Of a stretch of DNA of 64,000 nt, positions 45,806 to 62,699 are shown piece by piece. The notes under the pieces were generated by a model. The model was not told the DNA's origin. It saw only the letters and a program-made list of their open reading frames with translations, and searched no databases. The stretch lies in assembly GCA_965217585.1 (NCBI GenBank), contig OZ244561.1, forward strand, positions 4,640,001-4,704,000, written 5' to 3'. Within the stretch, counting starts at the first letter, position 1; every line of letters starts with the position of its first letter. The position numbers and the translations under genes are program-made. The stretch comes from Candidatus Latescibacterota bacterium. Its GTDB lineage: Bacteria > Latescibacterota > UBA2968 > UBA8231.

Positions 45806-47079
45806 TCACCTTTCGTCGAGGTAGTCGCTGAACCAGAGGCCGCCCAGCGGCAATCCTTCTTCGACCATGTTGTTCACAATAGGATCGTCGCTTGCTCGGC
45901 GAATCGTTGAAAAGCCATCCTCGCCTTTTTCCAAAATCCAGACTTCTTGCGGCTCTAACGCATTGACGAAGTATGGCTGATGCGTCGTGACAAAAACTTG
46001 CGAGTTGCCTCTGCGTCCACTGGCGTGTTCGCGGAATTCGTTGGCGAGGGTCTCCAAAAGCTTGTGATACAGGCCGTTTTCCGGCTCTTCGATGCAGAGG
46101 AACGGAGGGGGTGTCGGGTCTTCGAGTAGCAATAAGTAGGCGAATACCTTGAGCGTCCCATCGGACACTTGCTGAGCATAGAACGGCTCTTGGAAGCCTT
46201 TGTCGTTGAACCTAAGCAGCAACCGACCATCATTGGTTCTTTCCGTGTCGATCTTGTGTATGCCCGGAATTTTCTCGGCGATCTTCTTTAGCATAGCCTG
46301 AAAACGCCGTGGATGTTCGCGCTCCATGAATTGCACGACGTTGCCGAGATTGTCACCATGGATGTTGAGACGGCTCTGTGGACCAGCCAACGGTAGGCTG
46401 CGGGCTGCGTCGGGGGTGAAGTAACTGAGATACCATCCCTCGATGAAGCGGCGAAAAGCGGAAATTCGCGGGTATTGTTTCAAGGCACCGAGCGTGGCAA
46501 TGCCGAGCTTGCGCTGGTCTTCCAATTCGATGAGTTCTGCATCTTTGAATTCTTTTTCTTTTCCTATCGATTGTATCCACTCGGAAATATCGAAACCTTC
46601 TGATGTTTCATCGATTTGCTTACCCGTCTGGTTTCCCTTCCAAACCGTGCCTAAGCCTGCTGTAAGAGAAAGGAAAAAGAGTGATCGGTCATTTCCCAAG
46701 TCTTCTTTCATTGTTTCTTCAGCCACATAAGGACGCCCGAAATTGTTTGCCGCAATGGCGATCTCGTAAGTATAGGCTGGGCATTTTCTTCTTCTTTGTA
46801 ATGTACCTCGAACTCGATAGGACCTGTTTCCCCCTGCGTCCGCATCCTCTCGAACCCACCGCGCCCGCGTGCGTCGCAGGCTTCCTCAACGCCGAGTTTC
46901 AGGGCGTCGGCAAGGAAACCGAACGCATCGAACAGGGCGCTCTTTCCCACGCCGTTTTTGCCGATCACCGCTGTCATGGGAGTAAGCGGTTGGCTATTCG
47001 GTTGGTTCCACAGACGTCCCAGCGTAACGTCCTTGAGCACCTTGAAGTTTTTTATTCGCAAGCCTTCTATCTTAGCCAT
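45806..47079 (-). pseudogene. ABC/AAA_21-type ATPase split by a frameshift near 46770
   Basis: IKNFK and Walker A GKNGVGKS in 46708-47079; VSDGT, IEEPENGLY, TTHQP in 45806-46726; joining frames gives ..PITYEIAI..GRPYV. Confidence 0.78.
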
Positions 47080-50779: not shown

Positions 50780-51979
50780 ATGCCCGTTCTGATTGAAGAC
50801 GTCCAAACTATCCTCACCCAACCGGCCGGCTCCCGCTTGGTCATCGTCAAGATCGTCACCTCGGACGACGGCCTGTACGGACTTGGTTGCGCGACCTTTA
50901 CCCAGCGCTTCCACGCCGTGCATACTGCCATCGAACAGCACCTCAAGCCCTTCCTCATCGGCCGTGACGTGGATCGCATTGAGGAGACTTGGCAGATGGC
51001 CATGGTCAACAGTTATTGGCGCAACGGCCCGGTGCTCAACAACGCCATCTCTGGAGTTGATCAGGCGCTGTGGGACATCAAAGGCAAGCGGGCGGGGATG
51101 CCGGTGTACCAATTGCTGGGCGGCAAGTGCCGCGAAGGGGCGGCTGTGTACGGCCATGCAGGCGGCGAGACGCCCGAGGCCGTCGTCGATAGCATCCTCC
51201 AGTTTGAGGAGCAAGGCTATCGCTACATCCGCTGCCAAATGGGCGGCTACGGCGGCAAGGCATCGACCTTGGTTAAGCCCGAAGGGGCGCCCGAAGGCGC
51301 GTACTACAACCGCAAAGAGTACATGATGAACCACCTGCGGATGTTCGAGCACATTCGCGCAGAACTGGGTTTTGAGGTGGAGCTGCTGCACGACATCCAC
51401 GAGCGGTTGCACCCGATTGAGGCGGTGGGCTTTGCCAAGGACGTGGAGGAGTTCAAGCTGTTTTTCTTGGAGGACGCTCTGGCGCCCGAAGACATCGAGT
51501 GGTTCCGCCACATCCGCCAGCAGTGCGCGACGCCGCAGGCCATGGGCGAGCTATTCAATCACCCGCACGAGTGGACGCCGCTCATCGAGGGACGGCTCAT
51601 TGACTTCATGCGCATGCACGTCAGCCAGATGGGCGGGATCACGCCGGCGCGCAATGTGGCGGCATTCGGGCAGATGTACGGGGTGCGCACGGCTTGGCAC
51701 GGTCCGGGCGATACCTCGCCGGTGGGGCACGCGGCCAACCTACACTTGGACCTGTGGGCACCCAACTTTGGGATCCAAGAGTGGTGTCGGTTCCCGGAAC
51801 ACGTGTACGAGATGTTTCCGGGGCTGCCCGAGGTGCGCAACGGGTACATGTATCCGGGCGACGGCCCTGGGTTGGGGATCGACATCGACGAGGACTTGGC
51901 GGCCAAGTATCCTTGTGCGAACGAGGTCATTGGGTGGACGCAGACGCGCTTGCCCGACGGCAGCCCAGCGCGGCCCTAA
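50780..51979 (+). CDS. Enolase-superfamily sugar-acid dehydratase (RspA/mannonate dehydratase-like)
   Basis: RBS AAGGAG; YWRNGP, DQALWDIKGK, LLHDIHE, FLED, MGE, HGPGD.SPVG. Confidence 0.9.
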   Translation: MPVLIEDVQTILTQPAGSRLVIVKIVTSDDGLYGLGCATFTQRFHAVHTAIEQHLKPFLIGRDVDRIEETWQMAMVNSYWRNGPVLNNAISGVDQALWDIKGKRAGMPVYQLLGGKCREGAAVYGHAGGETPEAVVDSILQFEEQGYRYIRCQMGGYGGKASTLVKPEGAPEGAYYNRKEYMMNHLRMFEHIRAELGFEVELLHDIHERLHPIEAVGFAKDVEEFKLFFLEDALAPEDIEWFRHIRQQCATPQAMGELFNHPHEWTPLIEGRLIDFMRMHVSQMGGITPARNVAAFGQMYGVRTAWHGPGDTSPVGHAANLHLDLWAPNFGIQEWCRFPEHVYEMFPGLPEVRNGYMYPGDGPGLGIDIDEDLAAKYPCANEVIGWTQTRLPDGSPARP

Positions 51980-51980
51980 G

Positions 51981-53165
51981 ATGAAAGTCCTAGTTTCCAA
52001 TCTCGGCAGTACCTCGTTTAAGTACAAGGTCTTTGCCATGCCCGAAGAAGTGGTTTTGGCGCGCGGTGGCATGGATCGGATTGGGGGTCAAGGCTCGGTA
52101 CACACCTTCCAGATCGGCGGGGCCGACGAGGTTGAGCAGGCCGTAGATTTGCCCGACCACGCCAGTGCGATTGACGAGGCCCTCACGCGCTTGGCCGAGG
52201 GCGGGGTGTTGGCGTCGGTGGAGGAGCTGGACGCGGTGGGATTTAAGGCCGTTCACGCGCGCGCGATTTCCGGGGTGGTCGAGCTCGACGAGGATGTGGT
52301 GGGGCGGATGGAGGATTTTTATCCGCTGGCCCCGGCGCACAATCCCGCGTACGTGGCGGCGATTCGGCAGTTTGCGCGGGTGGCCCCCAAGGCGCGGCGG
52401 GTCGGGTGCTTTGAGACGGCCTTTCACGGGGCGATGCCGCAGCGGCGCAAAATGTACGCAGTGCCCTACGCTTGGTATGAGCAATACGGCATCCAGCGCT
52501 ACGGCTTCCACGGGGCCAGCCACCGCTATGCCGCTGAGGAGGTCGTGGAACTGGAAGGGCGCGCCGACCTCAAACACGTCAACATGCACTTGGGCGGGTC
52601 TTCGTCGCTGTGCGCGGTAAAAGATGGAGTCTCACAGGGGGCGTCGCACGGGCTAAGCCCGCAGGGCGGCCTGCCGCAGAACAACCGCATCGGCGACTTG
52701 GACCCGTACGCGCTGGACTTGGTCATGCGCAACGAGGATCGCCCGTGGGCCGAGGTGCTGGAGCAGTGCGCCAGCGAGGGCGGCCTGTTGGGGATATGCG
52801 GGCACAGCGACATGCGCGATATTGAAGCGGGTGCGGAAAATGGCGACGAGCGCTGTGCCTTGGCCATAGCCGTGCTGGCGACGTCGGCGCGCGACTGGCT
52901 GGGGGCTTTTGCGGTGGAGATGGGTGGGCTGGACGCGATCAGTTTTACCGGCGGCATTGGCGAGTACTCGGCTGCCGTGCGCGGCGAAATCCTGCGCGAC
53001 TTGGAATTTTTGGGGGTGGTGATGGATGCGACTAAAAATGAGAGCGTGCAAGGCGAGGGCAGCCTGCACACCGCGGCGAGCCGAGTGCCCATTTACGTGC
53101 TGCGCACCGACGAGGAACTGGTGGTGGCGCGGCAGACTTGTGAATTTTTGAGAGCTATCCCCTAG
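51981..53165 (+). CDS. ackA: Acetate/propionate kinase
   Basis: NLGSTSFKY, APAHNP, FETAFH, RYGFHGASH, HLGGSSS, FTGGIGE, TDEE. Confidence 0.88.
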   Translation: MKVLVSNLGSTSFKYKVFAMPEEVVLARGGMDRIGGQGSVHTFQIGGADEVEQAVDLPDHASAIDEALTRLAEGGVLASVEELDAVGFKAVHARAISGVVELDEDVVGRMEDFYPLAPAHNPAYVAAIRQFARVAPKARRVGCFETAFHGAMPQRRKMYAVPYAWYEQYGIQRYGFHGASHRYAAEEVVELEGRADLKHVNMHLGGSSSLCAVKDGVSQGASHGLSPQGGLPQNNRIGDLDPYALDLVMRNEDRPWAEVLEQCASEGGLLGICGHSDMRDIEAGAENGDERCALAIAVLATSARDWLGAFAVEMGGLDAISFTGGIGEYSAAVRGEILRDLEFLGVVMDATKNESVQGEGSLHTAASRVPIYVLRTDEELVVARQTCEFLRAIP

Positions 53166-53324
53166 CCTCCCTTCTGTGTCTGTGGATGGTGGGAGCGCAG
53201 GTGTGATTAGGGCAGTATTATTAGGGCGGCCTACTGGCTGGGCATGGCCATGCACCGCAAGTATCCGCGCCGGGTACTGACCGCACTACGCTTTTTGCTG
53301 AAGACCCCAATTTGACAAGATCTA

Positions 53325-53382
53325 CTCTTTCCAGCAAATTTGTTGGCAACAGGGTTGTTGGCAACAAATTTGCTGGAAAGAG
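53325..53382. repeat. Perfect 21-bp inverted repeat containing two TGTTG-G-CAACA palindromes
   Basis: CTCTTTCCAGCAAATTTGTTG (53325-45), 16 nt, CAACAAATTTGCTGGAAAGAG (53362-82); TTGACA at 53312-17 just upstream. Confidence 0.9.
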
Positions 53383-53392
53383 AGGTGTGACC

Positions 53393-54670
53393 ATGAGGCT
53401 CAGGAAGGCAGGCGGGAACTGGGTTGATGATGATCGGTTCTTCGACCGGGATGCCGAGCTCGAAGCACTCACCGAGCGGGTAAGGGACGGAACCCATACA
53501 CTGCTGACCGCGCAACGGCGGATGGGCAAGACGAGCTTGGTTAGGGAGTTACTGCGTCGCCTAAAGGACGAGGACAGCTTCGAGACGATCTTCGTTGATC
53601 TGGAGGGTGCCCGCACTCCAGCAGACGCCATCGCCGAGATCGGAGTTCGGTCGAGGTCGGTGCAGGGCGTACAGCGCAAGCTCAAATCTTGGCTCGCCAA
53701 CACTCTACGCGAGGCCGTTGATCGAGTCGATACGCTAGCCGTTTCCGAGGTGCAGGTGAAACTGCGCGCTGGAATCGACGCCGGAAACTGGCGGCAGAAG
53801 GGAGACGAGGTCTTTGCAGCCTTGGCTGAGAACGACCGGCCAGTGGTGCTCGCTATCGACGAGTTGCCGATTCTCGTCAATCGTCTGCTCAAGGGGGACG
53901 ACTACTGCATCACGCCGGAGCGAAGGCAGGCAGTGGATGAGTTCCTGAGTTGGCTACGCAAGAACGGTCAAGAACATCGAGGCCGGGTCTGCCTGATCCT
54001 CTCAGGCAGCGTGAGCTTGGAGCCGATTCTGCAACAGGCTGGGCTCAGCGCCCACGCGAACATCTTTTCTCCCTTCGATCTAAAGCCTTGGGAAGAGGAG
54101 ACTGCCAGTGCCTGCCTCGCCGCGCTGGCAGGCACTTATGACATCGAACTTCCACTCACCGTCCGCCAAGACATGTGCCGCCGGCTGCGGTGTCAGATTC
54201 CCCACCATGTGCAGCAGTTTTTCGATAATCTCCACGAAGATCTGCGCCGGGCCAACCGGCGGGAAGCCTCACTAGAAGATGTAGATCGCGTATACACTAC
54301 CGAGATGCTGGGTGTCCGGGGACAGATGGATCTAGAGCACTACGAGAGCCGGCTGCGGATGGTTCTCGGGGACAAAGGTTATCTGGCCGCCTTGGATATA
54401 TTGACCGAGGCCGCGGTCAACTACGGATTGCTGCATAGCGATGCCATTGACCAATATTATGAGTACTTCCAGGCTGATGCCGTCCCGGTCTCTACCAAGG
54501 ACATTCTTAGTGTGCTCGAACATGACGGCTATTTGGCGAGACAAGGTGACGACTACCGGTTCGTATCGGGCCTACTCGAAGCTTGGTGGCGCGCCCGGCA
54601 CGGCCGGCACTTCGTCCCCATAGCCCGCCGCCAAGCCAAAACGAGGAACAGCGGTAGCCATGACCACTAG
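53393..54670 (+). CDS. STAND-like P-loop ATPase with C-terminal wHTH
   Basis: RBS GAGGTG; RFFDRDAE, Walker A AQRRMGKTS, Walker B VLAIDE, SGS sensor, L..DGYL....YRF. Confidence 0.8.
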   Translation: MRLRKAGGNWVDDDRFFDRDAELEALTERVRDGTHTLLTAQRRMGKTSLVRELLRRLKDEDSFETIFVDLEGARTPADAIAEIGVRSRSVQGVQRKLKSWLANTLREAVDRVDTLAVSEVQVKLRAGIDAGNWRQKGDEVFAALAENDRPVVLAIDELPILVNRLLKGDDYCITPERRQAVDEFLSWLRKNGQEHRGRVCLILSGSVSLEPILQQAGLSAHANIFSPFDLKPWEEETASACLAALAGTYDIELPLTVRQDMCRRLRCQIPHHVQQFFDNLHEDLRRANRREASLEDVDRVYTTEMLGVRGQMDLEHYESRLRMVLGDKGYLAALDILTEAAVNYGLLHSDAIDQYYEYFQADAVPVSTKDILSVLEHDGYLARQGDDYRFVSGLLEAWWRARHGRHFVPIARRQAKTRNSGSHDH

Positions 54671-57191
54671 AAAGTACAACCCGGGGTTTCTCACCGACGA
54701 CGAACTGGTGGTCTCGTTCTGTGTGCGGACGGGCGAGTTTGAATCAATCGTTGACATGCTGCGTGAATGCACTGGAAGCGCCAATCCGCATCAAATTGCG
54801 ATCGGCCCACGCGGCAGCGGGAAAACGAGCCTGCTGCTGCGTGTCGCGGTCGAGGTGAGCCGGGATGCCGAATTGCGATCCGGCTTCTTTCCGATCGTCT
54901 TCGCCGAGGAAAGCTACGAAGTCGCCTCCGCTGGCGAGTTCTGGCTGGAATGTCTGTCCCGCTTGGCCGACCAGATGCCTCGCGGGGAGGATGTTCCCGA
55001 CCTGCACCGAACTTACGAACACTTGCGCACCATTCAGGACGACCAAATTCTTGCTGAACTCTGCCTCGGTACTCTGCTGGACTTCTCGGACCGGGAGGGC
55101 AAGCGGCTCGTGCTGATGGTTGAGAATTTGAACATGATGTTCAGGGACATGGCAGACTCCGAGGCGGGCTGGCGGCTGCGGAAGATTCTCCAGACCGAGC
55201 CGCGTATCATCCTACTGGCGAGTGCGACCAGCCGCTTCGACGAGATCGACAATCCGGACCACGCCCTGTACGACCTGTTCCGGGTACTGCTGCTGCACCC
55301 GCTCGACACCAAGGAATGCGCCGCGCTGTGGGAAGCGGTGTCCGGCAAATGCCCTCCGCCTGAGACCATTCGATCCCTAGAGATTCTCACCGGTGGCAGT
55401 CCGCGTCTGATCGCCATCGTGGCTCGCTTCGGAGCGGGGCGTTCCTTTCCCGAACTCATGGCCGAACTACTCGACCTCGTCGATGACCATACGGAGTACT
55501 TCAAGAGCCATATCGAATCGCTACCACCGCAGGAGCGGCGGGTCTATCTCGCGCTCGCCGACCTGTGGAAGCCGGCGACCACGAAGGAGATCTCGGCCCG
55601 CACCCGGTTGGAGACGAGCAAGTGTAGTGCCCAACTCACCCGCCTCATCGAACGGGGCGTCGTTCAGGTTATGGGGGGTACTGCCCGGCGCAAACAGTAT
55701 TACCTGACCGAGCGCCTCTACAACATCTACTATCTGCTGCGGCGCTCCCGCGGACAGGATTCCCTAATCAAGGCCCTCATCCAATTCATGGAGTCGTACT
55801 ACTCTGGTACTGAACTGAGAGACATCGGTGCTCATATCGCCCGCGAGGCAGGAAGTTTCGGCGGGGAGATGCAATCGCTGGCCCGGATCGCACTTGCACA
55901 GATGATGAAGTTACCGGCACTGGACGGGCATCGCGAAGAACTACTTGCGATGATTCCCGAAGGTTTCACGGAGGTTTTCGAGCGGGATTCGGTACCTTCC
56001 AATGTGGAGAGCAAGACGTCGGTCGGCGTGGAACAGTATCCCCGTCGGGAGGACCAAGGTAGCGAGGATACGAACGAACAGGCTGAGTTTCTGGCCGCGA
56101 AGGAGATCTTCGACGAAGCGGTTGCTCTGACGAATCAGGATCGGACAGAAGAAGCACTGTCCGCCTTCGACGAAGTGGTGCATCGATTCGCCGAGAGCGA
56201 AATGCCGATGGTCTCCCAACTAGTCGCACTGGCTGGACTCACACTCAACTACTTAGATCGTCCAGAGGACGCGCTGACCGCCTATGACGAAGTAGTACGC
56301 CGATTCGGCGATAGTAAGACGCCAGACCTTCTCGGATTAGTTGCGATGGCGCTTCGCGGCAAAGGGTGTGTACTCTATGACTTAGACCGGCTAGAGGATG
56401 CGCTGGCCACCTTCGACGAGGTGGTGCGCCGATTCGGCGATAGCGAGATGCCGGTCTTTCTCGAATCGGTCGCGTTCGCCCTCTTTGGCAAAGGGTGTGC
56501 ACTCGACGATTTAGACCGGTCGGAGGACGCGCTGACCACCTATGGCGAAGTAGTGCGCCGATTCGGCGACAGCGAGATGCCAGCCCTTCTCGAAGCAGTT
56601 GCAAGGTCGCTCGTCAGCAAAGGAGTCATACTTGACAGACTGAATCGTCCAGAGGACGCGCTGGCCACTTGTGACGAGGTAGTGCGCCGATTCGGTGATA
56701 GCGAATCTCCTGCGTTTCGTATGGTGACTGAGTGCGCGCTTCTTATAAAAGCGAATTCTGAGATAGAGTGTCGGCGGTACAAGGCAGCCATCGAGTCGGC
56801 AGGTCGGGTAATTGATATGTGCCACACGGAATCGTCGGAGAACCAATGGCTGGCTTATCTGATCAGGGCAAGGGCGACCCTCGCAAGCGGAGACCTATCC
56901 GCGAGCGAGCGAGACATTGCGGAGATCTTGACGATTCTTCCCGATCTCGACTCCCTTCCGAAGGAGAGCCTTGATGCACTGATGGCGTTCAGCATCGAGA
57001 TCGGGCTGGAGCGCATGGTCGATCTTATTCAGGCGTCGCCGTCGGCAAATCTTCTGTTGCCGCTTACGACGGCTTTGGAACAGGAACTCGGACACGAGCC
57101 CCGGGTGGCGCTTGAGGTCGCGGAAGTTGCCGAGGATATCCGGAAGGATTTGGCGAGGCTGAGGGAAACGCAGAGTGATGGCGTCGAGTAA
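54660..57191 (+). CDS. STAND-like ATPase-wHTH-TPR protein
   Basis: Walker A GPRGSGKTS, atypical Walker B LMVEN, TGGSPR, wHTH PATTKEIS...SAQLTRLIERG, five TPR-like repeats. Confidence 0.82.
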   Translation: MTTRKYNPGFLTDDELVVSFCVRTGEFESIVDMLRECTGSANPHQIAIGPRGSGKTSLLLRVAVEVSRDAELRSGFFPIVFAEESYEVASAGEFWLECLSRLADQMPRGEDVPDLHRTYEHLRTIQDDQILAELCLGTLLDFSDREGKRLVLMVENLNMMFRDMADSEAGWRLRKILQTEPRIILLASATSRFDEIDNPDHALYDLFRVLLLHPLDTKECAALWEAVSGKCPPPETIRSLEILTGGSPRLIAIVARFGAGRSFPELMAELLDLVDDHTEYFKSHIESLPPQERRVYLALADLWKPATTKEISARTRLETSKCSAQLTRLIERGVVQVMGGTARRKQYYLTERLYNIYYLLRRSRGQDSLIKALIQFMESYYSGTELRDIGAHIAREAGSFGGEMQSLARIALAQMMKLPALDGHREELLAMIPEGFTEVFERDSVPSNVESKTSVGVEQYPRREDQGSEDTNEQAEFLAAKEIFDEAVALTNQDRTEEALSAFDEVVHRFAESEMPMVSQLVALAGLTLNYLDRPEDALTAYDEVVRRFGDSKTPDLLGLVAMALRGKGCVLYDLDRLEDALATFDEVVRRFGDSEMPVFLESVAFALFGKGCALDDLDRSEDALTTYGEVVRRFGDSEMPALLEAVARSLVSKGVILDRLNRPEDALATCDEVVRRFGDSESPAFRMVTECALLIKANSEIECRRYKAAIESAGRVIDMCHTESSENQWLAYLIRARATLASGDLSASERDIAEILTILPDLDSLPKESLDALMAFSIEIGLERMVDLIQASPSANLLLPLTTALEQELGHEPRVALEVAEVAEDIRKDLARLRETQSDGVE
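56148..56780 (+). repeat. Intragenic 129-bp tandem repeats encoding 43-aa TPR-like units
   Basis: GAGGAYGCGCTG...CGCCGATTCGGYGA at 56265, 56394, 56523, 56652; shorter degenerate unit at 56148. Confidence 0.9.
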
Positions 57192-57214
57192 CTTAGGACG
57201 AAGGAGGTGTACTT

Positions 57215-58510
57215 GTGAAACTGAAATCTGTGGAGATTGAAAACTATCGCGCCATTGAAAAGCTCAAGCTGCCACTCGATCCGTCGCTGACGGTGTTGCA
57301 CGGCGACAATGGGTACGGCAAGACGAGCGTTCTGAGTGCGATTGCGGTGGGATTGGGGGATGAGGCTATGCTCGGACCGTTTCTCGATGTCTTCATTTAT
57401 TTTTGCGAAGAGGATTGGCGCGAAGGCGCAGGGAATCCGCTGGTATCGCTCACTTCAATGGACGGAAAGGCGTGTGAGCGACCAGGGACTAGGTCGGTGG
57501 TTAAGCGGAAGAAGGCGGAGGAAGAGATGTCGGTCCACCGGGAGAATCTGGAGGAGGCGCTGGTCGAGGATAGCCATGCAGATAACAACGATATGCCGAT
57601 CTGTGTCCTTTATGGTACTGATCGGACGGTCTCAGATGTGCCAGAATCGGTGGTATCTCCGCGCCATTTACCGCGCCGGGTTTCTCGGTTAGATGCGCTG
57701 AAAGGGGCGCTTTCTGCTCGCACGGATTTTGAGGACCTCTTTGCTTGGTTCTATTTCAAGGAGGACGAGGAATTGAGGGAACAGAAGGAACGCCGCGACT
57801 TCGATTATCAGCTAAAAGAGGTATCTGCGGTGCGCCAAGCGATCTCGTCCATGCTTCCGGAAGTGTCCGACCCTCGTACCGAGTCGAATCCTCCCCGTTT
57901 TATAGTGTCCCAGAAATCGGAGCAAGGACAAGTAGAAAAGCTCCCACTCGACCAGCTAAGTGGGGGCTATCGCATTATGCTGGCGCTGGCGGCCGATCTG
58001 GCACGGCGGATGGTGCAGGGCAATCCGCACTTGGACGACCCACTTGAATCCGAGGCGGTTGTCCTGATTGACGAGGTGGAACTGCATCTGCATCCAAAAT
58101 GGCAGCAACGCATCTTGGACGATCTGCAGCGGACGTTCCCGAATGCGCAGTTTATCGTCTCTACTCACAGCCCGCAGGTGCTGACTACGGTCGAGCCGCA
58201 GCGCATTGTGGAACTTGCTCGAGAAGGCGACCGCATTGTTGCGGGGGCACCGGCAGGGGCGACGTATGGGGCCGAGGCGGGGGATGTGCTTTCCGTGGTG
58301 ATGGGCGTAAAAGAACGGCCCGAGAACGAGTTCACAAAAGCACTGGAACAATACCGGTATCTGATCAGGGAGGGACAGTGGGAGTCCGAAGAAGCCTTGG
58401 CTCTGCGAGCGAGTCTGGAGAGCATGTCTCCCTACGATCCGGCCCTCGATCGAGCTGACCTTGAAATCCGACGACGCAAGCTGTTTAAGCAGCGGGCCGA
58501 GTCGCCATGA
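57215..58510 (+). CDS. ABC-type ATPase, Septu PtuA/retron-effector-like
   Basis: RBS AAGGAGG; IENYRAI, GDNGYGKTS, LSGGYR, VLIDEVELHLHPKWQ, STHSPQV. Confidence 0.85.
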   Translation: MKLKSVEIENYRAIEKLKLPLDPSLTVLHGDNGYGKTSVLSAIAVGLGDEAMLGPFLDVFIYFCEEDWREGAGNPLVSLTSMDGKACERPGTRSVVKRKKAEEEMSVHRENLEEALVEDSHADNNDMPICVLYGTDRTVSDVPESVVSPRHLPRRVSRLDALKGALSARTDFEDLFAWFYFKEDEELREQKERRDFDYQLKEVSAVRQAISSMLPEVSDPRTESNPPRFIVSQKSEQGQVEKLPLDQLSGGYRIMLALAADLARRMVQGNPHLDDPLESEAVVLIDEVELHLHPKWQQRILDDLQRTFPNAQFIVSTHSPQVLTTVEPQRIVELAREGDRIVAGAPAGATYGAEAGDVLSVVMGVKERPENEFTKALEQYRYLIREGQWESEEALALRASLESMSPYDPALDRADLEIRRRKLFKQRAESP

Positions 58511-58989
58511 AGAGGGTTCGCGAATTGAGTAACCCGACTCTTGGCCTTGACGAATACCTCGGTTGTATGGGTGAAGACGCGGATTGGGACGAATTTCGCT
58601 CTCACAATTCGGGGGCGTCGTACCGCGAACTTAGAGGTGCCCTAACCCAAAACCAACACGGACTCTGCGCTTACTGCGAGATTGCGATCAGAGGATGGCG
58701 TCGTCAGATTGAGCATGTGATCCCGCAGAGCGACGCCAAACTGGGCAAAGCGAAGGCCCTCGACATAGCCAACATGGTCGCCTGCTGTATGGGTGGAACC
58801 GTGCAGGATGATGAGGATCGTTATCGCAGTCCCGTGGGACATAACACGAGCTGTGGTCAGGCAAAGGGAAGTCAGAACGACGAAAATTTTATTGACCCTC
58901 GGATACTACCCGCGCTGCCCTCGCTTATGAGGGTAATTGACAACGGGCTGATTGAAGCAGACGAAAATGAGTACATAAAAAAACGATAG
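58507..58989 (+). CDS. HNH endonuclease, PtuB/TIGR02646-like, possibly C-terminally truncated
   Basis: ATGA coupling; LCAYCE, IEHVIPQS, NMVACC, SCGQAKG. Confidence 0.8.
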   Translation: MKRVRELSNPTLGLDEYLGCMGEDADWDEFRSHNSGASYRELRGALTQNQHGLCAYCEIAIRGWRRQIEHVIPQSDAKLGKAKALDIANMVACCMGGTVQDDEDRYRSPVGHNTSCGQAKGSQNDENFIDPRILPALPSLMRVIDNGLIEADENEYIKKR

Positions 58990-59012
58990 ATTATCTGTGG
59001 AGGATGAAACTC

Positions 59013-59735
59013 ATGTTCGGAACTATTCGCAACTCGTCCGGCGAAGAGTTGGACTACACTTTTCACGCCGGCACGGAGGGGTCGCGGCACATTGCCGTCT
59101 TGGGGCACGGCGTGACCGGCAACAAGGACCGCCCCTTTGTAGTAGCGCTCGCCGAGGGGCTAGCGGCTGCTGGCATCCACGCGCTGCGCTTTTCCTTTGC
59201 CGGTAACGGCGCGTCCGAAGGCCGCTTTGCCGACTCGACGATCTCCAAAGAGGTCGAAGATCTTGGCGCGGTGCTCAGCGCCTTGGACGGCTACTCGGTC
59301 TGCTATGTCGGCCACAGCATGGGAGGGGCGGTCGGCGTCTTGCGCACCAGCCGCGACGAGCGCATCCGTCTGCTCGTCTCTTTGGCCGGCATGGTGCATA
59401 CTCGCGCCTTTGCCGAGCGCGAGTTCGGCGAGGAGGTGCCCGACGAGGGCTGCATGTGGGACGAGCCAGACTGCCCGCTCTCGCAAGCGTACATGGACGA
59501 CATGGCCCAGATCGACACCGTGGTGGAACGCGGGGCCGAGATTGCGGTACCTTGGCTGTTGATCCACGGCAGCGAGGACGACGTGGTGCCGATTGCCAAC
59601 TCGCATGACATCCTCGCCCAAGCCAGCGACACCGCCGAACTCGTCGTCATCGACGGAGCCGACCACGTCTTTAGCGAGCACGCGCAAGTCATGGTCGAAA
59701 AGATCGTCGGTTGGCTACAAGGGCAGTGGGCATAA
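59013..59735 (+). CDS. Alpha/beta hydrolase
   Basis: RBS GGAGG; HG, GHSMGG nucleophile elbow, HGSEDDVV, GADH. Confidence 0.9.
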   Translation: MFGTIRNSSGEELDYTFHAGTEGSRHIAVLGHGVTGNKDRPFVVALAEGLAAAGIHALRFSFAGNGASEGRFADSTISKEVEDLGAVLSALDGYSVCYVGHSMGGAVGVLRTSRDERIRLLVSLAGMVHTRAFAEREFGEEVPDEGCMWDEPDCPLSQAYMDDMAQIDTVVERGAEIAVPWLLIHGSEDDVVPIANSHDILAQASDTAELVVIDGADHVFSEHAQVMVEKIVGWLQGQWA

Positions 59736-59840
59736 GCATCCCCGCAGGTCGCAGCCTACCAGAGATAGCGCGCAACTCCTATCTTTAAAGGAGTACGCCC
59801 GGCAATCCCGCCGGCCATGTGCGCTCTGCCAAGCTAAGCC

Positions 59841-62699
59841 ATGCAAAAGAAAACCCCGAGTCGCCTGAGTGCTCGCCAGCAACGGACCTTGCTGGCGGTC
59901 GTGGTCCTAGGCGTCTTCATGGTCGCCGATACGCTCTATCTGCTGACCAACCGGCTGGCCGACGTCTTGGACTCGGGTTATTTCGCGGTCACTGACATTT
60001 CCCTGCCCAAGTTTTACCAGGGCATGGTGCTGTCGCATACGGGCGTCGGTCTGGTGCTGGTGGTGTTGGCGATGGGCTTTGTGGCTTGGCACCTACCGGC
60101 CGTGTGGCGCAGAAGCCGCAAGAGGGCCATCCTCACCGGCATCGCCACGCTGACGCTGGGCATCTTACTGGCCATCAGCGGGCTGTTCATCCTCAGCGCG
60201 GCGAGCAACCGCGGCAATCCGGTGGCCTACTGGAGCCACGTGGCCGCGGCGGTTTTAGTCCCTCTCTTTTACTTGGCGCACCGCCGCCTCTCGCTGTGGA
60301 AGCCCTCCGCGCGGAGCTATCGCATAGTGCCCGTAGCGGTGGTTGGGCTGTTGGCGCTAGCCGTGGTGCTACACGGGTTGACCTATAGCGGCGAGCAGTA
60401 CACGCAGGCGGCCGAGCAGGCATTCGCCGCTGGCAAGCACACCGGCCCGGGTTCCAAGGCGCGGCAGGTCGCCGACTTTGCCCCAGACGACTTCGTACCC
60501 GCCAATTTTGTCCCGGCTGAAAGCCCCTTTTTCCCGGCGGCTACTACGACTACGACCGGCGACATTCTGCCCTCGCGGATCATCACTCGCGGCGATCTTT
60601 CGCAGCCGGAGAAACTTGCCGGGGACCTCGACGAGTACGGCTTTGTGGTCAACGAGCCGATTGGCTCGGAGACTTGCGCCCGTTGCCACGCGGCGGTCGT
60701 CGAACAGTGGGCGACATCGGCGCATCGCTTTGCCTCGTTTAACAACCCCTTCTACGAGGCGACGATCAACGACATGCGCAGCAACTCGACCGAGAGCAAC
60801 GCGGAGGTCGCTGCCCATATTGCCTATTACAAGGACTTGGCGGGGGAGGAGGGCAAAATCAAGTCCAAGTGGTGCTCGGGTTGCCACGATCCGGCGCTGA
60901 TGCTGGCGGGTAAAATGACCGAGGAGATCGACCGCGCCTCGCCCCAGGCCCAAGCCGGGCTGACCTGCCTGGGCTGCCACGCCATCGACGAAATTCACGA
61001 TCAGACCGGCAACGGCAACTACAACATCGCCGACGAGCAGGAGGATCCCTATCTGTTCGCCAATGCCAAAGAAGGGGCTGGCCGCTTCGTGCACGACACT
61101 GCGCTGAAGGCGCGGCCCATCGTCCACAAAAAGCAGATGCTCAAGCCCTTTTTCCGCACCTCTGAGTTTTGCGCCACCTGCCACAAGGTCAGCCTCGACT
61201 CGCGCGTCAATGGCTACCGCTGGCTGCGCGGCCAAGACGAATATGACAATTGGCACGACAGCGGCGTGGCGCTCAACGCCTCCAGGACTTTCTACCTGCC
61301 CGGTGTCAAGCGGGTCTGCCAGGACTGCCACATGCCGCTGGAGGAAGCGGTCGCCGGTGACGTGTCGGCGCGGGATGGCTACGTCAAGTCGCACCGCTTT
61401 TTGGCGGTCAACACGGCCCTGCCCTTCATCCGCGGCGACGAGGAGACCATCGCGCGGATCGAGGAATTTCTGCAAGACGAAAAACTCAGCGTCGATGTAT
61501 TCGCGCTGCACCACCAAGAAGAAGCGCACTACGCGCTGGACAAGAGCCAGCCAGCGCTGGTGCCCGGCGGCGAGTACGCATTCGACGTGGTGGTGCGCAA
61601 CAAGGGCGTCGGGCATACCTTCCCGGGCGGAACCAACGATTCCAACGAGGGCTGGCTAGAGGTCTCGGTGGTGGGAGACGACGACGTGGTGCTGGCTTTG
61701 AACGGGGCGGTGCAAGACGACGGGCACGTCGATTTGGGGGCGCATTTTTACAAGGCGCTGATGGTCGATGCAAAAGGCCAAGCCATCCATCGGCGCAACG
61801 CCCAGGACATCGTCACGGCCGTGTACGTGCGCACCATTGGTCCGGGTACGGCGGATGTAGCTCACTACAGCTTCGAGGTGCCCGCAGACTACGCGGGGCG
61901 CAAGCTGACGCTGCGGGCGCGGCTGCTGTGGCGCAAGTTCGACCGCGCCTATACGGAATTTGCCTTCAACAGCAACCGCCAAGGCTTCCGCCGCTTCGAC
62001 CAAGTGCCGGAGTTGCCGGTAACTGAGATCGCCCGCAGCGAAGTGGAGCTAGCGGTGGGAGGGTCGTCCGCGGCGGGTGCGCCGGATGCGGGCGACTGGA
62101 TGCGCTTCAACGACTATGGCATCGGCTTGCTGCTCCAAGACGATACCCAAGGTGCCGCACGGGCCTTTGCGACGGTGGAACAGCTAGCGCCCAAGCGCCT
62201 AGACGGCTGCCGCAACTTGGCTAGGGTTGCGGTGCGCGACGGTCACTTAGAGCGGGCCTACGAGCACTTGGGGGACTGCGAGACGCTGGTCACCGGCGAC
62301 GGGCAGACGGCTTGGGTTTGGGGCGTGGTGTTACAAGAGGACGGTCGCTACGAGGCGGCGGCGCAGGCGTATCGCCGGGTGTTGCGCGACTTTCCCGAGG
62401 ATCGGGCTTCATGGCGCAACTTGGGCCGGGTGCTCTATCTCGACGGCCGCTACGAGGAGGCTTTGGAGGCCCTCGACGGCGTGCTGGCTATTGATCCGGA
62501 AGACCGCGTCGCCCACTACCACCGAATGCTCTGCCTGCGCGCCCTTAGCCGCGAGGACGAGGCCCTCGTCGCCGAGCAGGCTTACCAGTACCACCAGATC
62601 GACGAGTCGGCTCAAGAGCTGACGCGCCGCTACCGGCTAGAGCATCCGCACGACAACCGCGAGGCACTCAAAATCCACGTTCATCCGTTGGGGAATTGA
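59841..62699 (+). CDS. Membrane-anchored multiheme cytochrome c with C-terminal TPR repeats
   Basis: Five N-terminal TM segments; five CxxCH (CARCH, CSGCH, CLGCH, CATCH, CQDCH); GHTFPGG; TPRs. Confidence 0.85.
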   Translation: MQKKTPSRLSARQQRTLLAVVVLGVFMVADTLYLLTNRLADVLDSGYFAVTDISLPKFYQGMVLSHTGVGLVLVVLAMGFVAWHLPAVWRRSRKRAILTGIATLTLGILLAISGLFILSAASNRGNPVAYWSHVAAAVLVPLFYLAHRRLSLWKPSARSYRIVPVAVVGLLALAVVLHGLTYSGEQYTQAAEQAFAAGKHTGPGSKARQVADFAPDDFVPANFVPAESPFFPAATTTTTGDILPSRIITRGDLSQPEKLAGDLDEYGFVVNEPIGSETCARCHAAVVEQWATSAHRFASFNNPFYEATINDMRSNSTESNAEVAAHIAYYKDLAGEEGKIKSKWCSGCHDPALMLAGKMTEEIDRASPQAQAGLTCLGCHAIDEIHDQTGNGNYNIADEQEDPYLFANAKEGAGRFVHDTALKARPIVHKKQMLKPFFRTSEFCATCHKVSLDSRVNGYRWLRGQDEYDNWHDSGVALNASRTFYLPGVKRVCQDCHMPLEEAVAGDVSARDGYVKSHRFLAVNTALPFIRGDEETIARIEEFLQDEKLSVDVFALHHQEEAHYALDKSQPALVPGGEYAFDVVVRNKGVGHTFPGGTNDSNEGWLEVSVVGDDDVVLALNGAVQDDGHVDLGAHFYKALMVDAKGQAIHRRNAQDIVTAVYVRTIGPGTADVAHYSFEVPADYAGRKLTLRARLLWRKFDRAYTEFAFNSNRQGFRRFDQVPELPVTEIARSEVELAVGGSSAAGAPDAGDWMRFNDYGIGLLLQDDTQGAARAFATVEQLAPKRLDGCRNLARVAVRDGHLERAYEHLGDCETLVTGDGQTAWVWGVVLQEDGRYEAAAQAYRRVLRDFPEDRASWRNLGRVLYLDGRYEEALEALDGVLAIDPEDRVAHYHRMLCLRALSREDEALVAEQAYQYHQIDESAQELTRRYRLEHPHDNREALKIHVHPLGN

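Follow-up and report, generated by a model that had tools for sequence, protein, structure and literature searches.

In stand-alone (type I) Septu systems, a gene for an ABC-type ATPase, PtuA, is followed by a gene for an HNH nuclease, PtuB; the stop and start codons of the two overlap, and no reverse transcriptase (RT) is present. The same kind of effector pair is found in type I-A retrons (Ec78/Eco7), where it is accompanied by an RT together with a non-coding RNA. One report (PMC12819146) describes how a helical C-terminal domain of PtuB binds two paired C-terminal extensions of PtuA, the whole forming a bundle of nine helices, and describes this docking element as conserved between Ec78 and stand-alone Septu. 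Here we examine a block of four genes, g1, g2, ptuA and ptuB, located between the acetate kinase gene ackA and a hydrolase gene in Candidatus Latescibacterota bacterium (GCA_965217585.1, OZ244561.1 positions 4,640,001-4,704,000, forward strand). This stretch of 64,000 nt is referred to in its entirety as the window, and coordinates are positions within it unless another genome is named. An initial annotation had proposed that g1 and g2 encode a pair of STAND ATPases that guards PtuAB, with the four genes forming one new antiphage system in which the pair takes the place of a retron. We put the probability at roughly 0.7 that two independent modules instead make up the locus, as a mosaic within a defence hotspot bounded by ackA and the hydrolase gene, and functional coupling of g1-g2 to PtuAB is unlikely. 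This reading was reached because each pair stands alone at the same site in related genomes, because of the sequences found at the module junctions, and because PtuAB has been lost beside an intact g1-g2 pair.

Two gene pairs at one chromosomal site

The four open reading frames (ORFs) are co-directional and occupy 53312/53393-54670, 54660-57191, 57215-58510 and 58507-58989 on the forward strand. They are tightly coupled, as first described: in the window sequence the last 11 bp of g1 are shared with g2, a 23-bp gap containing GAAGGAGGTG, with a ribosome-binding site, lies before the GTG at which ptuA starts, and ptuA and ptuB overlap by 4 bp (ATGA). The upstream flank is ackA (PF00871, E 4e-90) and the downstream flank an alpha/beta hydrolase gene, and the GC content of the block is indeed lower than that of its surroundings (0.52-0.60 over 53000-58999 vs 0.64-0.66 in 51500-52999 and 59000-59499). 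The reported absence of an RT was likewise confirmed, with no RT domain found by Pfam among the four proteins, no other long ORF in the ackA-hydrolase interval, and no match to an Rfam family (E≤0.1) over 52000-60000. A scan for consensus promoters returned 0 sites, and terminator-like sites numbered 4 vs 5.6 expected, figures that are not informative.

The site was compared across 31 genomes of the genus, all of which contain the hydrolase gene; below, G-numbers denote genus genomes (G000 being the window's own), L-numbers denote loci and X-numbers denote public runs. PtuAB alone is present between ackA and the hydrolase gene in nine genomes (G001, G002, G004, G007, G008, G013, G019, G042 and G046; the G008 contig begins upstream of ptuA, with ackA unseen), and a ptuA remnant of 107 codons in one more (G045). 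Both pairs are present in only two genomes (G000 and G022), and g1-g2 is present without PtuAB in four (G011, G020, G021 and G041), including G041, where only g2 is seen, abutting the hydrolase gene. Either pair thus stands alone at this position in 13/31 congeners. In seven genomes ackA lies within 300 bp of the hydrolase gene, in three the two are separated by a gap of 0.6-1.1 kb, and in five the site is occupied by an unrelated three-gene insert. The G001 site holds PtuAB followed by HmaC, DUF7680, NsnA, NsnB, NsnC, HmaB and HmaA, an arrangement in which a Menshen system is embedded in an Hma system. Because the cargo at this position is interchangeable across the genus, the ackA-hydrolase interval is regarded as a defence hotspot. 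It provides a natural series of empty site, Septu alone, Septu plus cassette, and cassette alone.

The junction sequences give the order of events. Where PtuAB alone is present, the ackA stop codon is followed by ~15 bp, then GACGAAGGAGGTG, N6 and the ptuA start codon, GTG. G000 and G022 carry a ~4-kb cassette, comprising a leader, g1 and g2, at exactly this point, with the ackA stop on one side and the ptuA ribosome-binding site on the other: its left edge comes directly after the ackA stop, and at its right junction (57192..57214, forward strand) the g2 stop is followed by the resident ptuA ribosome-binding site, GACGAAGGAGGTG. Three of the genomes with g1-g2 only could be read across the corresponding junction (G011, G021 and G020), and in these the g2 stop still has behind it the ptuA ribosome-binding site with the opening ~8 nt of ptuA. 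This remnant indicates that PtuAB was deleted after the cassette had arrived, and the two different deletion junctions, one in G011 and one in G021/G020, indicate that this happened at least twice. In a quick tree the g1 genes of five sampled genus members form one clade (99% support in the Shimodaira-Hasegawa-like approximate likelihood ratio test, SH-aLRT), and in the PtuA tree the window protein falls among the copies of PtuAB-only congeners. Taken together, junctions and trees indicate that Septu was resident first and that the cassette entered once. Of the six genus members that carry the cassette, G022 is the only one in which an intact PtuAB remains. Module 1 (genes 3-4) would accordingly be an ordinary stand-alone Septu resident at the site in the genus, and module 2 (leader, g1 and g2, ~53166-57191) a self-contained cassette, acquired by horizontal transfer and equipped with a promoter region of its own, which would have been inserted precisely between the ackA stop and the ptuA ribosome-binding site.

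Some further features of the site were seen in other genomes. Between ptuB and the Hma/Menshen island of G001, 72 bp of the ackA 3' end (24 codons) recur at 92% identity (L154 = G001:C1:3087000-3100700, at 631-702), which suggests that the ackA 3' end may act as an integration site. The three-gene insert (L151-L153, L156 and L157, in G012, G044, G003, G006 and G024) is 2.6 kb long and encodes proteins of ~240, 205 and 365-370 aa; in G046 (L155) this insert follows PtuAB. Genes 1 and 2 of this insert have no Pfam or PADLOC match, and the product of gene 3 has a metallo-beta-lactamase fold with weak matches to LmuA and RTasMBL; the insert is thus a further uncharacterised cargo of the hotspot.

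The g1-g2 cassette and its repeats

The cassette leader (53166..53392, forward strand) contains a TTGACA box at 53312-53317, two cores of sequence GTTGGCAAC, a degenerate third copy and a GAGAGG ribosome-binding site. The palindromic core is present as two exact copies 15 bp apart at 53342-53365, and this paired motif occurs once in the 7.3-Mb genome, in front of g1. Upstream of g1 in every phylum in which the cassette was found, the palindromic core GTTGSCAAC is repeated 2-5 times in tandem at a 15-bp period, in most cases immediately behind a TTGACA box. One or more core copies (≤1 mismatch) were found within 150 nt upstream of g1 in 78/79 loci vs 44/1529 control windows, and at least two copies in 59/79 loci vs 2/1529. 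The cassette therefore appears to bring its own conserved cis element, most simply an auto-operator. An earlier candidate, TGGCAAC-N-TTGC as a possible sigma-54 site, was dropped, the element being a repeated palindromic core conserved in all phyla.

The first gene of the cassette, g1 (53393..54670, forward strand), encodes a 425-aa AAA+ ATPase with a lid and a C-terminal winged helix, PF01637 (ATPase_2) as its Pfam family, and an Orc1/Cdc6-like fold. Alignment with 36 homologues places its start at the ATG at 53393 and not near 53325, where it had been placed initially; the TTG at 53312 is part of the TTGACA box and not the start codon. The protein matches PF01637 at 38.5 bits (cut-off 33.2) and also matches AAA_16 and AAA_22, and its Walker A (GKT45-47) and Walker B (DE156-157) residues are invariant in 37 sequences. 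The best Foldseek match to its AlphaFold2 (AF2) model (score in the predicted local distance difference test, or pLDDT, 86.7) is the PF01637 protein 2qen (E 1.4e-9, template modelling (TM) scores 0.54/0.63), followed by archaeal ORC2/Cdc6/Orc1 structures, DNA-bound forms included; E values for 2qen, 1w5t, 2fna, 2qby and 1fnn range from 1e-9 to 2e-7, and CED-4 appears at rank 29. A g1 profile searched against PDB sequences gave weak matches only (2qen, E 7e-4; 2fna, E 0.04). Judged from the model, classic STAND NTPases are less close to the g1 fold than are AAA+ proteins of the archaeal Orc1/Cdc6 and PF01637 kinds, which corrects the earlier description of g1 as a STAND-like ATPase. Like the archaeal PF01637 ATPases (2qen, 2fna) and Orc1/Cdc6, g1 has an AAA+ domain, a lid and a winged helix, and repeats lie beside its gene; unlike them, it occurs in a bacterial two-gene context, the sequence identity between them is 11-17%, and an origin function is without support. 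The one paper found on PF01637 in connection with phage is unrelated and concerns PD-(D/E)XK nucleases, a fold that the g1 model does not show. In three loci g1 has an internal stop within the aligned stretch, at codon 232 in L073, codon 113 in L077 and codon 86 in L099, indicating that the cassette, too, decays in some genomes.

The second gene, g2 (54660..57191, forward strand), encodes an 843-aa protein composed of a P-loop NTPase, a winged helix, a tetratricopeptide repeat (TPR) array and a conserved C-terminal helical tail, which agrees with the initial annotation of an ATPase-winged-helix-TPR protein with no fused effector. Pfam detects several TPR families in g2, whereas AAA_16 scores 25.4 bits and the TrmB-type winged helix 24.2 bits, each short of its cut-off, and the Walker A motif GxGKT52-56 is invariant in 39 sequences. 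The AF2 model (pLDDT 74.5) is all-helical after the NTPase, and its best Foldseek match, 6mfv, is a STAND protein whose sensor consists of TPRs (E 7e-6, at low TM scores of 0.21/0.26); Orc1/Cdc6 structures stand further down the list, with Avs3 at rank 21. Residues 1-460 match only generic "AAA ATPase/HTH" clusters in the ESM Atlas. BLASTP finds no similarity between g1 and g2, which are therefore not recent paralogues. A heteromeric g1-g2 complex would be expected from the linkage of the genes; when g1 was co-folded with g2 residues 1-440, the score was 0.29 against a mark of 0.32, which is taken as evidence in neither direction.

While the N-terminal 390 residues of g2 homologues are conserved at 52-79% identity, their total length varies from 456 to 1570 aa via TPR copy number (74 loci with a defined end). 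In the window, the TPR array includes a tandem repeat (56251..56704, forward strand) of 129 bp (43 aa) in 3.5 copies, with a Tandem Repeats Finder score of 469. The copy number of this 43-aa repeat differs between relatives, and one contig of the public run X8 omits 513 bases of the TPR array, between 56138 and 56652. The g2 tail that follows the variable array (57040-57188, residues ~793-843) is strongly conserved, with a pLDDT above 90 and the consensus SPSAxLLLPLTTALExELGxxPRVAxEVxEVAxDI; docking or autoinhibition would be conceivable roles for it. Neither Pfam and PADLOC nor the structure models reveal an effector domain (nuclease, protease, SIR2 or similar) in g1 or g2, and a search for longer forms of either protein returned only two, both of which look like g1-g2 fusions, and no effector fusion.

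Two described groups of proteins resemble g2 in part. Avs/AVAST and other bacterial NLR-like proteins combine a STAND NTPase with a sensor, and Avs3 is among the fold matches given above; in layout g2 resembles them, with its P-loop NTPase, winged helix and copy-variable, sensor-like TPR array, although the AAA_16 match is below its cut-off and the STAND fold matches are at low TM. Unlike Avs, it has no fused effector, matches no PADLOC Avs model at E≤0.01, and has a second, ORC-like ATPase gene as an obligate partner (79/80 loci). The STAND-TPR proteins of the PH0952/MalT type (6mfv) provide the best fold match and the same series of NTPase, winged helix and TPR, and an autoregulatory logic would be plausible for g2, but the TM scores are low and a DNA-binding output domain of the LuxR type is absent from g2.

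A scan of one genome per species with g1 returned 111 relatives, and the best 80 loci were analysed. Among these 80, g1 identity is 55-89% across at least nine phyla, which points to horizontal transfer; the titles of the metagenome-assembled genomes name Latescibacterota, Binatia, Gamma- and Alphaproteobacteria, Acidobacteriota, Gemmatimonadota, Chloroflexota, Spirochaetia, Rhodothermales and Opitutales. In 79/80 loci g1 is followed by g2. In a large protein collection, at least 2482 g1 relatives at E≤0.001 were found among 8000 scored. No relative was found among IMG/VR viral contigs with two peptide patterns from the g1 alignment, and plasmids yielded two distant g1 matches at 23-24% identity. 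Neither g1 nor g2 matches a system in PADLOC 2.0.0 (best matches mad8, E 7e-6 over 87 residues, and PDC-S01, E 0.006), the pair and its operator as a unit have no system-level match in PADLOC 2.0.0, Pfam or NCBIfam, and literature searches found no description of the pair.

A second, more distant family of g1-like and g2-like pairs (~40% and 35-45% identity, respectively) is present in other genomes of the class. At its loci (L016, L019, L021, L025, L028 and L067) two or three g2 paralogues often occur in tandem. The window genome also has a further short g2-like gene 3.3 Mb away (L023, G000:C1:1401591-1402778). PtuA above 50 bits was found at none of these loci, L023 included.

As a working model for the cassette, the variable TPR array of g2 would sense an invader or a ligand, a nucleotide-dependent assembly of g2 with g1 would then act on DNA via the winged helices, and the GTTGSCAAC repeats would serve at least as an auto-operator. 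The g1-g2 pair is a compact, uncharacterised two-gene cassette with a conserved repeat operator, and as such is a candidate worth attention. If it is immune in function, it would act as a sensor of the NLR-like kind, with DNA binding itself or a partner in trans providing the output, and it would bear on the question of how effector-less STAND proteins signal.

Septu and its association with the cassette

The third gene, ptuA (57215..58510, forward strand), encodes a Septu ABC-type ATPase of 431 aa that appears intact (PADLOC PDLC00311, E 4.6e-114), with Pfam matches to AAA_15, AAA_21 and SMC_N above cut-offs. Ten further genus genomes have a full-length orthologue in this position, at 71-88% identity. 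The fourth gene, ptuB (58507..58989, forward strand), encodes an HNH nuclease of 160 aa that matches the PADLOC PtuB profile (E 7.7e-35) over positions 1-164 of 260, and TIGR02646 at 59.1 bits (cut-off 52.15); the Pfam HNH match, at 17.1 bits, is below its cut-off of 21.4. Both genes were thus named appropriately at the outset, except that PtuB is truncated: the protein is 253-258 aa long in all five congeners compared (G001, G002, G013, G022 and G007). The window PtuB stays in register to ~residue 153, through the HNH part, and ends with six unrelated residues and a stop. Deleted are ~100 C-terminal residues and the spacer to ~30 bp before the hydrolase start, leaving the hydrolase gene 15 bp after ptuB vs ~390 bp plus 100 codons elsewhere. 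As the missing piece corresponds to the PtuA-docking domain, Septu is probably non-functional in the window genome. Window PtuA is 88% identical to the G022 copy, its closest relative, and 74-78% identical to those of G001/G002/G013; the N terminus of window PtuB is 92-97% identical to G001/G002/G013 and only 54% to G022. The Septu alleles are therefore mosaic, which points to recombination between ptuA and ptuB.

In its strong PADLOC matches, its ATPase-then-HNH gene order, its overlapping stop and start codons and its lack of an RT, this pair resembles stand-alone Septu. It differs in that the window PtuB is the HNH half, without the helical C-terminal domain that bundles with PtuA in the report cited above (PMC12819146), and by sequence comparison genes 3-4 are a Septu member failing one defining feature, the PtuB docking domain. 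With the type I-A retrons it shares the kind of effector pair; the retron-type PtuA and PtuB NCBIfam models match the window genes below their cut-offs, as opposed to TIGR02646, and unlike in a retron there is no RT domain or Rfam RNA in 52000-60000 and the upstream genes encode ATPases.

Beyond the window genome, the two pairs are repeatedly found together. PtuA or PtuB is present within the 10-kb flanks of g1-g2 in 10 of the 80 loci, with a variable order of the genes. The order is g1g2-PtuAB in the window genus and PtuAB-g1g2 in L047, L049, L056, L057, L058 and L061; in L051, L054 and L056 PtuAB is located further downstream, past an inverted g2-like gene. A whole-genome search for PtuA was made in the 72 genomes behind the non-genus g1-g2 loci: 48 have no match at E≤1e-20, six have distant ATPases only, and 18 have a close PtuA (≥53% identity). 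Erosion of PtuAB beside an intact g1-g2 pair is also seen in a second lineage of Latescibacterota, where L047 has an internal TAA in ptuA, L053 retains PtuA residues 241-430 only, L051 has an upstream ptuA fragment, and the syntenic L048 lacks PtuA.

Where g1-g2 and Septu are neighbours, an Hma system contains or adjoins them, accompanied by Menshen or PDC-M68. The order in L049 is HmaC ... PDC-M68B, PtuAB, g1g2, HmaB, HmaA, that in L061 is PtuAB, g1g2, HmaC, x, NsnABC, and hma genes are also present in L046, L054, L056, L057 and L062. According to a preprint (bioRxiv 10.1101/2024.01.29.577857), Septu is commonly embedded between hma genes, as are other systems. The g1-g2 pair resembles the Hma-embedded candidates of that preprint in lying with Septu between hma genes in the relatives L049 and L057; it differs from them in matching no PADLOC 2.0.0 HEC or PDC model, and in the window the flanks are ackA and the hydrolase gene rather than hma genes. 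Movement of Hma islands between genomes with both pairs as cargo would produce repeated adjacency without a mechanistic link, and the recurrence of g1-g2 with Septu is best accounted for by both being cargo of Hma-associated defence islands, and not by an obligate partnership.

Several observations weigh against the two-module reading. The four genes are packed like an operon, and the 23-bp gap between the modules has no terminator-like site. Adjacency of the pairs confined to this genome, which the initial annotation had named as evidence of chance stacking, is not what was found: among the 18 non-genus genomes with both, PtuA is in the g1-g2 locus (within 10 kb) in nine and elsewhere in nine. 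This adjacency is far above random placement and above simple island stacking, and at least three gene orders and several g1 clades are represented. For L061 the PtuA tree disagrees with the g1 tree, which suggests repeated juxtaposition. A 586-nt contig of X17 (56771-57357) bridges the g2-ptuA junction in a relative 90-97% identical to the window. The absence of a recognisable effector from g1-g2 makes a borrowed effector a natural idea, and the PtuB truncation comes from a single assembly, without an independent contig across the 58965-59004 junction. As for the defence character of g1-g2, Hma, Menshen, Septu or PDC-M68 genes are present in only 12/80 g1-g2 loci, and in Dehalococcoidia the pair lies among housekeeping genes (a CoA-transferase, a glycosyltransferase, an MFS transporter gene and AlkZ). 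A defence role for g1-g2 is therefore drawn from a minority of its contexts.

These last points bear on an unlikely alternative in which g1-g2 is an autoregulated STAND-type signalling or transcription-control pair with MalT-like logic, niche-specific and non-immune, that happens to land in variable regions. Winged helices in both proteins, the conserved operator-like repeat before g1 and the lack of an effector domain would all be expected of such a pair, as would the conserved housekeeping neighbourhood in Dehalococcoidia and the 68/80 loci without the defence families counted. However, the paired operator motif stands solely before g1 in the window genome, and no regulon is therefore visible; transfer across phyla at 55-89% identity fits a conflict system better; and presence/absence polymorphism at a hotspot otherwise holding Septu, Hma and Menshen, embedding between hma genes and variation in TPR copy number all argue in the same direction.

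It is distinctly improbable that the four genes form one defence system in which TPR-based phage sensing by g1-g2 releases or activates PtuAB in the retron's place, as the initial annotation had it. Such a system would account for the operon-like packing, for a g1-g2 pair without an effector domain, and for the recurrence of PtuAB in 10/80 flanks and, in several orders, in 9/18 non-genus genomes with both. The bridging X17 contig would add weak support. Contigs of two metatranscriptomes from different studies, X17 and X18, are 90-97% identical to the window and cover parts of g1 and g2, those of X17 also parts of ptuA and ptuB; X18 has no depth over PtuAB, but such RNA-library contigs are piecemeal and unreliable for expression or absence. 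They are compatible with transcription in relatives, with DNA carry-over as another possible source, and prove neither transcription nor a single transcript. Against a single system stand the 13/31 congeners with either pair alone at the same site, including nine genomes in which close PtuAB orthologues (71-84% identity) occur there without g1-g2, and the deletion of PtuAB at least twice and its truncation once after the arrival of g1-g2, which stayed intact. In addition, 48/72 other g1-g2 genomes lack a PtuA-like gene at the E≤1e-20 threshold, gene order is not conserved, g1-g2 brings its own promoter region, and the window PtuB has no PtuA-docking domain.

A looser form of coupling, in which g1-g2 is an effector-less NLR-like sensor pair that borrows neighbouring nucleases with PtuAB as its preferred partner, would account for the repeated joining of the pairs in at least three gene orders across phyla, and has a similarly slim chance of being correct. 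Lastly, a replication or maintenance module of a small mobile element, with ORC-like initiators and iterons, can be given almost no credence: the Orc1/Cdc6-like fold of g1, the 2-5 direct repeats immediately upstream and the movement across phyla recall such an element, but the cassette has two genes only, with no integrase, partition or transfer genes, lies in chromosomes at different sites, has no IMG/VR relative by the two patterns and only the two plasmid matches at 23-24% identity, and carries its repeats between a -35 box and a ribosome-binding site, an operator-like placement.

Other genes in the window

An HEC-01A-like ABC ATPase gene is split over two ORFs at 45806-47079 on the reverse strand, ~7 kb upstream of the four-gene block. 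The ORF at 45806-46726 (reverse strand) matches PADLOC PDLC04182 (E 5.6e-129) over profile positions 124-402 of 406, and that at 46708-47079 (reverse strand) contains the Walker A part of the ATPase (AAA_21, AAA_15); together they are probably a frameshifted Hma-embedded-candidate gene. On the other side of the block, the region 59841-62699 encodes a 952-aa protein with paired CXXCH (multihaem cytochrome) motifs and C-terminal TPRs, which is unrelated to the four genes and is kept at the site across the genus at 83-99% identity.

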